Shown here piece after piece: positions 42,001-45,000 of a DNA stretch of 64,000 nucleotides. Source of the DNA: Deltaproteobacteria bacterium (GTDB taxonomy: Bacteria > Desulfobacterota > Binatia > UBA9968). Location: assembly GCA_005879605.1 (NCBI GenBank), contig VBKE01000015.1, positions 10,669 through 74,668 of the forward strand, written 5' to 3'. The first letter of the stretch is position 1; every line of letters begins with the position of its first letter. The position numbers were made by a program.

Positions 42001-45000
42001 TGCAGGATCATTGCCCATCCTATTCGGCAATACTCCATTACTCCACTCCAGTTCGCATCTCCTGCATTTTAGCTGCGTGGTTCAGCTACAGATAGTGCAG
42101 CTTAGCCCTCCCACGGGCCATACGCTCTTCCGCTTTTCTGATTCGATCCGCGGTTCCAAGATCCTGCCAGAATCCTTCAAAGCGAAAGCCATAGAGCGGT
42201 TCTTCTTCGACCAGCATTCTCGGATAGATGTCCTTAGTGGTGCTGAATTTCTGCGCGCCTTCGTCGGTTGGCATATAGTCGAAGACTCGAGGATTGAGAA
42301 TTTGCACGCCGGTAAACATGAGCTTGGTGCCCGCGATTGCAGACGCACTCGGTCTCTTGGCGTGCAAGAATCTGTCGATGCGTTCATCCGAATCGATTTC
42401 CATGGAACCGAACTGATCGGCGAGTTCATCGGCCCGCAGAACCAAGGTCGCTGTCGATTTTTTCTCTTCGTGAAACGCGATGACCTCAGCCAGCGGCAAA
42501 TCGATCAACACGTCCGTATTAATGACGATGAACGGCCCTTCTGAAAGAAACGGTTTGGCTTTCAGAAGACCGCCGCCGGTGTCGAGCAGCTCTCGCTCTT
42601 TCGAATAGCCGATCTTAAGCCCGAATTTAGCGCCATCCCCCAGGTAAGCTTCAATCTGATCGCCCAGGTGGTGCAGATTGATAATAATCTCGCGGACCTC
42701 GTAGCGGCGCAGGAGCAGGAGCGGGTAGTCGATCATTGGACGACCGGCCACAGGCACAAGGGCCTTCGGGATCGTCTCCGTCAGCGGCTGCAGCCGATGG
42801 CCCAGGCCTGCGGCAAAGACCATCGCCTTCATCGCATCTCCTCGAAATGGTCGGCGAGCATCGGCAGGAGTTTTTCGGTTTGCGGCAATCGCGCGAGGTT
42901 TCGTTTCAAGCGCCGGACTGTCGACGGGATAAATCTTTTGTAGCCGGGCTTGGCCTTGACGATATCCAGATAATAGAAGCGCCCGACGACCTTCAAGTCT
43001 CTTTGAATCGCCGAGAGCAAGTAGGTGTCAAAAAATTCATCCCGGTTGAACGGCTGCTTTGCGCCCTCATTGTACTTGTCGAGATAATAGCGGAGCAGCT
43101 GAGCCTCAAGATGAGGCCGGATGATGCTATCCGTCACACGGTCATTCAACAGCGAAGCTAGATCGTATTGCGGCGGTGCCAGCAGCGCGTCCTGGAAATC
43201 AATAACGGCGACCGCATCATTGTGAACCATCAGATTCCAGCTATGGTAGTCCCGGTGGTTTAAGCAAGGAGGTTGGCTTTCGAGCCGATGGGCGATATCG
43301 GCGAAAATCTTGCGCAATTCCTCGGTCGCGCTCATGCAGGCTTGCACGCCCGGACGCTTGATCAGACCGTATTCGATAAAATGATCGAACTCCCACATGT
43401 AAAGACGAAAATCGAAGCGCTGCTGAAACGCAATACAGGAGTCGTTGCGCGCGAATGTGCCAGCCAGTTGGAGCACCAAGAGTTCGTCAATCGCCTTACG
43501 GTACCATCCGAGGATTTCAGATTCCGGCAATCCTTGCACTCGGTCCCATAGAGCGATGTCGCCCAAATCTTCCAATAGCAGGATGCCTTCTTGCTCCCAC
43601 TGGCCGTAAAGTTGCGGCACCCTCACGCCAATCGTGATTAGAAAACGGTGCAGATTCAGAAAGGGCAGCTCTTTGGGAGGTTCCTTGAAGACCGCCAATT
43701 CTTCCGAGGAGAGAGGTAACGAGCTTCCGTCAGGGAGTTCCATGACGATAACCGACGGCGGAGTACCCGGCCCCGCGAGAACAGCGCGATAATAACGCCG
43801 GCTCGAAGCGTCGCCGGCGAGAGCGGTAAGGGACGCGATGCTCGTCTTTTCACCGAAAGCAGCGCGGGCTTTCTCAACGATCAGCTTTTCAAGTGAACTG
43901 TTCATCGCATCGTCTCATCGTGTTCGCTTCGCAGCGGAAGCTTATATTATCAGAGTTGCTCACGAACCCAAAGGCGTGGAGGAAGAGGCGCAGGCTATGA
44001 GAAAGAAATTTGCTGTTGGCCTGTGTGTGATGTCCGTAGATGGAAGCCGACGCCGTCGGCCGTTTCAAACCTCTCAGCTGCCGCGGAAACCGATCGTGAC
44101 TTTACCTTCTTCCACAATCACCGGTACCTGGCGGCGACCGTTGGAATACTTGAGCATGCGCTGAAGAGCCTCATCGTCTTCCAAAACGTTGACATACTCG
44201 AAGGGAATCTTGCGCCGGGAGAAGTCCTCACGGGCTCCCGAAGTGTAGGGTCACAGATCCTTGCCGAAAATGAGAACCGTTTTTGTGGTCATAGGTTTGA
44301 TTCCTTAGAGACGGCCTGCTGGTGATTTCAGCAATAACGGACAATTCCGCTTTATGAATAGGCTCCCGTAGGTGAAATTGCAAGTGAGTCGTTCCCCGTG
44401 TTAGCTTTGTGAAAATTTCTGCGTTTGTTCCCGGAGTCAAATCTTTGCCGATTCGCATCACCATGGCTCAGCTCGACTCCAGGCTTGGATCGCTTGTTTT
44501 GATGGTTCAATGACTCACAACTAAAACTCACAAAGAACTCCACGGAGGCGAGATTTGGTTGGGACGCTGTACGTTGTCGCCACTCCCATCGGCAATCTCG
44601 AGGATATCACCTTACGCGCGCTTCGCGTGCTCAAAGAAGTCGATGTCATCGCTGCCGAAGACACGCGTCACACTCAGATTCTCTTGAACCATTATGGCAT
44701 TCGCACGCCGCTGACCAGCTACCACGAGCACAACGAGAAGACCAAAGCGCGTCAACTGATGAGCCGCTTGGAACGGGGCGAACAAATTGCGCTGGTGTCA
44801 GATGCTGGAACGCCGGCCATTTCGGACCCAGGCTATCGGCTGGCGGTTGAAGCTATCCGAGGCAGAATTCCAGTGATTCCTATTCCAGGGGCTTCCGCAT
44901 TGACGGCGGTTCTCAGTGCCGGCGGGCTTCCCACGGATCGCTTTGTCTTCGACGGTTTTCTGCCCGCTAAGAAGCAGGAGCGGCGCGCGCGACTGCGCGC

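Follow-up and report, generated by a model that had tools for sequence, protein, structure and literature searches.

The gene considered here lies on the minus strand of a 64,000-nucleotide stretch of DNA from a Deltaproteobacteria bacterium of the Binatia lineage UBA9968 (GenBank assembly GCA_005879605.1, contig VBKE01000015.1, positions 10,669 to 74,668), and the whole of this stretch is referred to below as the window. The locus very probably encodes a 75-residue glutaredoxin (Grx)-like selenoprotein of the family NF041114, which carries two selenocysteines (Sec, U) at two in-frame UGA codons. The predicted product is MTTKTVLIFGKDL-U-PYTSGAREDFSRRKIPFEYVNVLEDDEALQRMLKYSNGRRQVPVIVEEGKVTIGFRGS-U-EV, with the C-terminal end reading ...GFRGS-U-E-V. 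The features of the locus are collected in Table 1, including the two hairpins considered as selenocysteine insertion sequence (SECIS) elements, one within the coding sequence (CDS) and one in the 3′ untranslated region (UTR).

Table 1. Features of the selenoprotein locus and its neighbours, in window coordinates
Feature	Position	Strand	Remarks
Complete predicted selenoprotein CDS	44065..44292	minus	75 codons + stop; translation
Shine-Dalgarno-like AAGGA	44302..44306	minus	Sequence reading; 9 nt 5′ of ATG 44292-44290
UGA-1, predicted Sec14	44251..44253	minus	Codon 14; opens the U-P-Y-T active-site motif
UGA-2, predicted Sec73	44074..44076	minus	Third-from-last residue (U-E-V-stop); TGA-GAG-GTT-TGA at 44076-44065
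True stop, also UGA	44065..44067	minus	9 nt past UGA-2; 10 nt 5′ of the SECIS-2 loop
Candidate SECIS-1, inside the CDS	44215..44241	minus	7-bp stem + 2-bp apex (C44234 C44233 / G44227 G44226)
SECIS-2 (predicted), 3′ UTR	44045..44061	minus	GGCCGAC-GGC-GUCGGCU, 7-bp stem; loop starts 19 nt past UGA-2
AmgK-like kinase of the aminoglycoside phosphotransferase (APH) family, downstream neighbour	42829..43905	minus	NCBIfam matches below equivalog cut-offs
MurU-like nucleotidyltransferase, after the AmgK-like gene	42086-42832	minus	NCBIfam matches below equivalog cut-offs
rsmI (16S rRNA C1402 2′-O-methyltransferase), divergent upstream	44555..45394	plus	TIGR00096, 290.9 bits

Gene model and family assignment

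An earlier note on this DNA had proposed a Grx-like selenoprotein at this site. The AAGGA motif, the 9-nt gap, the ATG and the first in-frame TGA from which it set out are all present, and the translation it quoted is exact. The note described a frame of 72 codons; its ATG and its frame hold, while its end at 44076-44074 does not, since reading on past this TGA shows U-E-V-stop. The codon taken for the terminus is thus read as the second Sec codon, and the stop moves to 44067-44065.

The product matches the Pfam Glutaredoxin domain PF00462 with E=2.5e-12 when Cys is put in place of TGA. The closest profile is NF041114, "UXX-star selenoprotein family 1", with a curated cutoff of 72 bits. With Cys for TGA and without the C-terminal tail, the protein scores 108.4 bits over profile positions 1-67 of 70. 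With the tail, the score rises to 116.8 bits over positions 1-70 of 70 (C for U), or is 103.3 bits with X for U, and the last three profile positions are matched only once the tail is added. The full-length score therefore lies above the cutoff, and the protein has the U-x-x-stop end and a Grx-like fold with the [U/C]-x-x-T motif, the Thr of which (T17 of U-P-Y-T) is invariant in the alignment of homologs. The window protein and NF041114 agree in length (about 75 aa), in the [U/C]xxT motif, in having U-x-x-stop at the C-terminus and in their two Sec residues, and no substantive difference separates them; NF041212 is the parent subfamily. Classical Grx (TIGR02181 / TIGR02180) and NrdH (TIGR02194) profiles give 27-35 bits against cut-offs of 86-90. 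The protein also departs from both classes in the fourth motif position, which is Thr, and in the C-terminal helix, as the AlphaFold2 (AF2) model has no helix after strand b4.

The protein search returned 328 database homologs with identities of up to 89%. Most of them are 72 aa long and represent Cys14 forms clipped by gene callers at the C-terminal TGA, and the close homologs carry the NCBI name "UXX-star (seleno)protein family 1". A genome scan with one genome per species yielded 47 orthologous loci, mostly in metagenome-assembled genomes of Binatia and "Deltaproteobacteria", with some in Syntrophobacter and Desulfosarcina. The identity to the genomic orthologs of Binatia and "Deltaproteobacteria" is 77-83% (tblastn, best segment). 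The family is abundant in soil Binatia and Desulfobacterota and widespread in soil Binatia and "Deltaproteobacteria". A 2026 review (PMC13188914, Table 1) lists it as "Distant Grx-like protein 1" with the motif UxxT and 2 Sec, and places it under "predicted with high confidence", outside the verified families. The two-Sec form is not evident in the 2008 Global Ocean Sampling (GOS) paper that this review cites for family 1. The gene is one more ortholog of an already known, computationally predicted family.

The earlier description of the gene as unannotated was therefore right in one respect and wrong in another: pipelines without Sec awareness miss it, but the family itself has a curated entry (NF041114) and appears in the 2026 review. 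As that description also held, the interrupted frame hides the gene, and a standard open reading frame (ORF) listing yields only spurious ORFs at the locus. An example of such behavior is found in the public ENA/JGI annotations. In the public contig L050, spurious ORFs at 12309-12545 (+) and 12448-12750 (-) lie over the selenoprotein gene, in the region that corresponds to window positions 44065-44292. Two spurious ORFs of 78 and 100 aa without a Pfam match occur in both L050 and L051, and the 100-aa ORF occurs alone in L052. These calls confirm that pipelines that do not consider Sec miss the gene. The locus illustrates, for annotation, how Prodigal-type pipelines cover a real gene with two spurious ORFs, and how even a careful manual reading can miss part of a gene with two Sec when the second of its Sec codons resembles a stop.

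The in-frame UGA codons and their downstream hairpins

Three soil metagenomes that were assembled separately (ENA CRIT18-1 scaffold_50, JGI 3300027748 and JGI 3300005559) carry the 341-nt gene region without a single base difference, so the TGAs are not one-off assembly errors, a possibility that the earlier note had named among those that would refute it. Of the 41 long ORFs in the window, 17 end in TGA, and code 11 gives a normal gene map; the organism thus uses the standard code. The alternative, in which the TGAs are errors for TGC/TGT or belong to a code with TGA as a sense codon for Trp or Gly, would agree with the database proteins P0046, P0082, P0119 and P0120, which have W at these codons. 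These four are translations under a TGA=Trp code, with W at both the active-site and the C-terminal columns, and represent mistranslated two-Sec forms in public protein collections. The orthologs that do not have TGA at column 14 carry Cys there, never Trp or Gly. Together with the identity of the three independent assemblies and the normal use of TGA stops, this leaves the alternative a negligible probability.

The codon-14 column shows an alternation of Sec and Cys codons across the 47 loci: TGA in 27, TGC in 15 and TGT in 5, which gives 20 Cys forms. Codon 14 therefore aligns with Cys or Sec throughout, as the earlier proposal required. A neighbour-joining tree built from 45 sequences requires 11 or more independent switches between Sec and Cys at this column, and two loci that differ in the codon, L001 (TGC) and L005 (TGA), have a nucleotide identity of 98.6%. 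The eight codons 5′ of UGA-1 keep their amino acids at a synonymous difference of about 0.60. Such retention of residues under free synonymous change indicates that the first 13 codons share the translated frame of the remaining gene, and these 13 codons are under protein-level purifying selection. The exchange of Cys and TGA at the active site and the selection upstream of it both support the Grx-like selenoprotein first proposed for this site.

The C-terminal column behaves differently in that it does not switch. All 47 orthologs have TGA at UGA-2, and in each of them two sense codons (mostly E-V or A-V) and then a stop come next; no Cys form occurs at column 73 among the 47 sampled loci. 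The final stop itself is TAG in 20, TAA in 17 and TGA in 10 of them. A TGA that is kept in every ortholog while the next stop varies freely is no ordinary stop. In the window, the Sec-UGA at 44076-44074 and the stop-UGA at 44067-44065 are 9 nt apart, and both lie 5′ of the same hairpin. The SECIS-2 loop is 19 nt from UGA-2 and 10 nt from the terminal UGA, and such a pair of codons allows one to ask, in a natural setting, whether SECIS spacing is what separates Sec from stop.

The hairpin downstream of UGA-2 is the better defined of the two RNA elements. A GC-rich hairpin of 5-9 bp is present in 48 of 48 sequences, with the loop starting 15-20 nt past UGA-2, and the loop opens with GG in 43 of the 48 (GGC, GGUC, GGU, GGA or GGG). 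In a loop-anchored alignment, 7 of 8 pairs have changes on both sides. The covariation is 0.384, compared with 0.170±0.021 in shuffles, none of 500 of which reach 0.384, and with at most 0.123 in slid registers. Plain MAFFT alignments of the two downstream regions gave almost nothing with RNAalifold, a result explained by loop indels and register shifts that broke the alignment columns.

A GC-rich, intergenic stem-loop is also what a terminator would look like. The hairpin at 44061-44045 could then be a terminator or attenuator for the downstream AmgK-like gene, with the TGA at 44076 as an ordinary stop, and one homolog (L021) does have a T-run 3′ of the hairpin. The window and most homologs have no T-run, and the terminator scan called nothing at SECIS-2 in the window. 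The distance from UGA-2 to the hairpin is fixed at 15-20 nt, whereas the distance from the hairpin to the next gene ranges from about 50 to 1800 nt, and the hairpin is also present in clades without the AmgK neighbour. A TGA kept in all orthologs, with a second stop always exactly two sense codons further on, is likewise unlike an ordinary stop. A terminator is therefore very improbable here, and the hairpin is better read as the SECIS element of UGA-2.

The element downstream of UGA-1 lies within the coding sequence, where RNA and protein constraints overlap. The earlier note had drawn a stem of UCGGGAG (44241-44235) with CUCCCGG (44221-44215), enclosing a 13-nt loop and starting 9 nt past the UGA. 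This stem is present in the window, and across the family it is not conserved in register. What is conserved in the Sec forms is the apex GCC-CGU-GAG-G together with a hairpin loop 15-20 nt past the UGA. In the window, the apex loop is CGUGA (44232-44228), 18 nt past UGA-1. None of the 28 Sec forms (26 distinct rows) departs from the 2-bp apex, which is broken in 5 of the 20 Cys forms. At codons +1 to +10, the Sec forms have a synonymous pairwise difference of 0.28, compared with 0.49 in the remaining gene; in the Cys forms the two values are 0.40 and 0.47. The apex codons are near-frozen only in the Sec forms (Ala 0.00 and Glu 0.02, as opposed to 0.27 and 0.24 in the Cys forms).

A geometry test was based on the ensemble probability of hairpins with 5 bp or more whose loop falls at the 15-20 nt spacing, a spacing learned independently from SECIS-2. 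The Sec forms reach 0.57, compared with 0.09 in synonymous recodings (p=1.7e-6), while the Cys forms reach 0.33 against 0.16, which is not significant. A comparison of the minimum free energy of U and C forms gave p=0.043 and carried no real signal in this GC-rich gene. The Cys forms themselves differ in what they keep. Those Cys14 forms that are closely related to Sec14 forms (e.g., L001, L037, L038 and L042) retain the SECIS-1-type hairpin with P of about 0.9-1.0, and divergent Cys forms (L015, L019-L021, L025) have none (P=0). This pattern of kept and lost hairpins fits recent Sec-to-Cys conversions followed by the decay of an RNA element that has become useless.

Several results count against the two-Sec gene model and its RNA elements. 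First, the stem drawn in the earlier note has 66% of its cells paired and a covariation of 0.061, compared with 0.079 in shuffles. Second, folding energy gives no excess: that of the window hairpin is unexceptional (z=0.13 relative to dinucleotide shuffles, z=-0.76 relative to synonymous recodings), and the family mean for SECIS-1 is z=-0.22 relative to synonymous recodings. Third, in the geometry test the window's own sequence has P of about 0.04, so that the family-type hairpin is a minor conformer there, and a competing hairpin at 44235-44212, with the loop GACUU 24 nt past the UGA, has -9.8 kcal/mol, compared with -10.2 kcal/mol for the earlier stem with its apex. Fourth, the SECIS-2 alignment was anchored on located hairpins, which biases its pair counts towards pairing, and Rfam gives no SECIS match at gathering or permissive thresholds. 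The last group concerns the surroundings. Neither tRNA-Sec nor selA, selB or selD is found in the 64-kb window (no tRNA; called genes checked), and the neighbouring genes in the clades examined include no redox partner. With respect to SECIS-1, we conclude that an RNA element probably exists at this position at the family level, and that the functional conformer in the window may be either of the two hairpins.

The weak hairpin in the window's own predicted ensemble would also suit a different reading of codon 14, in which Sec is inserted at the C-terminal UGA alone, the codon-14 TGA is a disabling nonsense mutation and the copy is a pseudogene. The Cys14 forms are, in addition, the abundant ones in protein databases, but gene callers are unable to call Sec14 forms, so such an excess is to be expected. 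The TGA lies at exactly this column in 27 of the 47 species, the frame and the protein are conserved to either side of it, and the downstream RNA-level constraint is specific to the TGA forms. As the sequence is moreover identical across the three assemblies, a nonsense mutation is hardly credible, and decoding of both UGA codons as Sec remains the preferred reading.

Predicted fold and possible chemistry

In the proposed expression mechanism, translation would start at ATG 44292, and the UGA at 44253-44251 would be recoded as Sec14, at the nucleophilic position of the [U/C]-x-x-T motif. This recoding would be directed by the intra-CDS stem-loop, with its apex about 18 nt downstream. The UGA at 44076-44074 would be recoded as Sec73 under the direction of the GC-rich 3′ UTR hairpin with its GG(C/U) loop, and translation would end two codons on at the third UGA, which may be too near the hairpin for recoding. 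Both recoding events would presumably depend on SelB and tRNA-Sec.

The structural model was built with AF2 on the homolog P0046, which has W at both Sec positions. It has a mean predicted local distance difference test (pLDDT) value of 77.5 and the order b1-a1-b2-a2-b3-b4, followed by a short low-confidence C-terminal strand, with no helix after b4. The nearest folds in the PDB are small Grx, NrdH and BC3987 proteins (Foldseek). In glutaredoxins, the segment after b4 (the GG motif) borders the active site, and in this protein the segment is G-(G/R)-S-U.

The protein would accordingly combine a minimal thioredoxin (Trx)/Grx fold, lacking the last helix, with a flexible C-terminal Sec73 that may serve as the resolving partner of Sec14. 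A redox pair of Sec14 and Sec73 on such a fold is its most likely role. The cycle would run between a diselenol and an intramolecular diselenide, or a selenenylsulfide in the Cys14 forms. A genuine intramolecular Sec14-Sec73 diselenide, acting as a very low-potential redox switch or as a selenolate pincer for soft metals, is a tentative proposal that we consider possible. Three points speak against a redox pairing of Sec14 and Sec73. The pairing of the two residues is one that we infer; the tail of the AF2 model has a pLDDT of about 62, with Trp standing for Sec, so that the model gives no Sec14-Sec73 distance; and, according to PMC13188914, Sec in UXX-star proteins could instead ligate a metal.

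The last point belongs to the main functional rival, in which the two Sec form a selenolate site for a metal or metalloid (e.g., Hg, As, Cu or Zn) and the protein is a chaperone or a sensor. The second position of the CxxC motif is Thr, which leaves no classical dithiol, and in 19 loci a ZupT-like transporter is encoded at a distance of up to about 2.5 kb, and in 12 SodC is nearby; these points would agree with such a site. The clades examined have no adjacent mer, ars or cop genes, and the fold and the position of Sec14 match the nucleophilic Cys of Grx/NrdH oxidoreductases. Frequent exchange of Sec and Cys, as seen at position 14, is typical of redox-active sites. We therefore consider a metal site unlikely and retain the Sec14/Sec73 redox pair as the working proposal.

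Known systems share parts of this arrangement. The selenoprotein cGrx of Clostridium oremlandii (PDB 4TR0/4TR1, 7C10/7C12; Kim et al. 2011, cited in PMC13188914), whose structures are among the nearest sequence and structure matches, likewise has a Grx fold in which Sec takes the first position of the active site. That Sec is its only one and belongs to a UxxC motif, in which Cys is the resolving residue; the protein also keeps the C-terminal helix and the glutathione (GSH) site, whereas the window protein has Thr at the fourth motif position, no last helix in the AF2 model and a second Sec in its C-terminal tail. The NrdH-redoxin, YruB-type and BC3987 small Grx-like redoxins are alike in size and fold, with template modelling (TM) scores of about 0.65-0.72 normalised to the target and weak matches to TIGR02194 and TIGR02196, for which the window protein reaches 33-42 bits against family cut-offs of 86-89. 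These proteins are CxxC dithiols without Sec and keep the C-terminal helix.

A C-terminal Sec is known from animal thioredoxin reductase (TrxR) and thioredoxin glutathione reductase (TGR), which end in a -Gly-Cys-Sec-Gly tail. As in the window protein, the Sec of these enzymes lies a few residues from the C-terminus in a flexible tail, is served by a 3′-UTR SECIS and has been proposed as a redox shuttle. They differ in being large eukaryotic flavoenzymes, in which Sec pairs with an adjacent Cys and the SECIS type and the machinery are other ones. The Grx domains of TGR are the top PDB sequence matches of the window protein.

Two Sec in one protein are also found in the UxxU selenoproteins, for which diselenide formation or metal binding is likewise possible. 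One of them, SelL, has reportedly been shown to form a diselenide. Bacterial Prx-like and metal-binding UxxU selenoproteins are both listed in PMC13188914. In UxxU proteins, both Sec belong to one motif, whereas those of the window protein are 59 residues apart and would require two SECIS elements.

Natural diselenide proteins are, to our knowledge, extremely rare. If the diselenide is real, one tiny mRNA holds two separately programmed UGA recodings and uses a third UGA as its stop, and a family that toggles between S-Se and Se-Se forms is a natural experiment on the cost of a second Sec. The invariant C-terminal UGA beside the free Sec/Cys switching, and the covarying 3′-UTR SECIS, are starting points for biochemistry and for work on SECIS spacing. 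Further ones are an internal SECIS constrained mainly at its apex and a stop-UGA only 9 nt past a Sec-UGA.

Genomic surroundings

The neighbours of the gene differ between clades. The adjacent AmgK-like and MurU-like genes accompany it in all 32 loci of the window's clade and in none of the 15 more divergent loci, where the neighbours are unrelated (an ATP-binding cassette (ABC) permease, HPr/EI and a PAS-GAF-LuxR protein) and show no redox or metal theme; the rsmI neighbour is found in 27 loci. The synteny of the AmgK-like, MurU-like and RsmI genes looks inherited and not functionally required, and the neighbourhood gives no clue to the function of the selenoprotein. The intergenic gaps of the window hold no other credible TGA-interrupted gene.

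One related genome has a different layout beside the locus. The scaffold L055 (ENA CRIT18-1 SAMN08902856 scaffold_311) carries an identical copy of the SBP_bac_5 gene of the window. It shares the gene order of window positions 44500-56500, in which a histidine kinase / sigma-54 regulator pair is followed by peptide ABC-transporter genes; the regulator has 465 aa, compared with 462 in the window. After the regulator, L055 has a Rieske-domain gene at the place that rsmI and the selenoprotein gene take in the window. Such a layout suggests a rearrangement breakpoint beside the selenoprotein locus in the related genome.

Two further observations concern more distant parts of the window. At 48755-49248 (-), a 56-aa ORF with a Pfam Acylphosphatase match is followed by a 108-aa ORF without a Pfam match, and the two overlap by 4 nt in different frames. 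An Acylphosphatase domain normally has about 90 aa; the pair could be a frameshifted or split gene, or the result of a miscalled boundary. The region of about 19200-32800 has an unusual density of large tetratricopeptide repeat (TPR) proteins (636, 640, 669-681 and 713 aa, plus smaller ones). Their genes are interleaved with those of a UbiD-family decarboxylase and a UbiA prenyltransferase, and a B12-binding radical SAM gene adjoins them.

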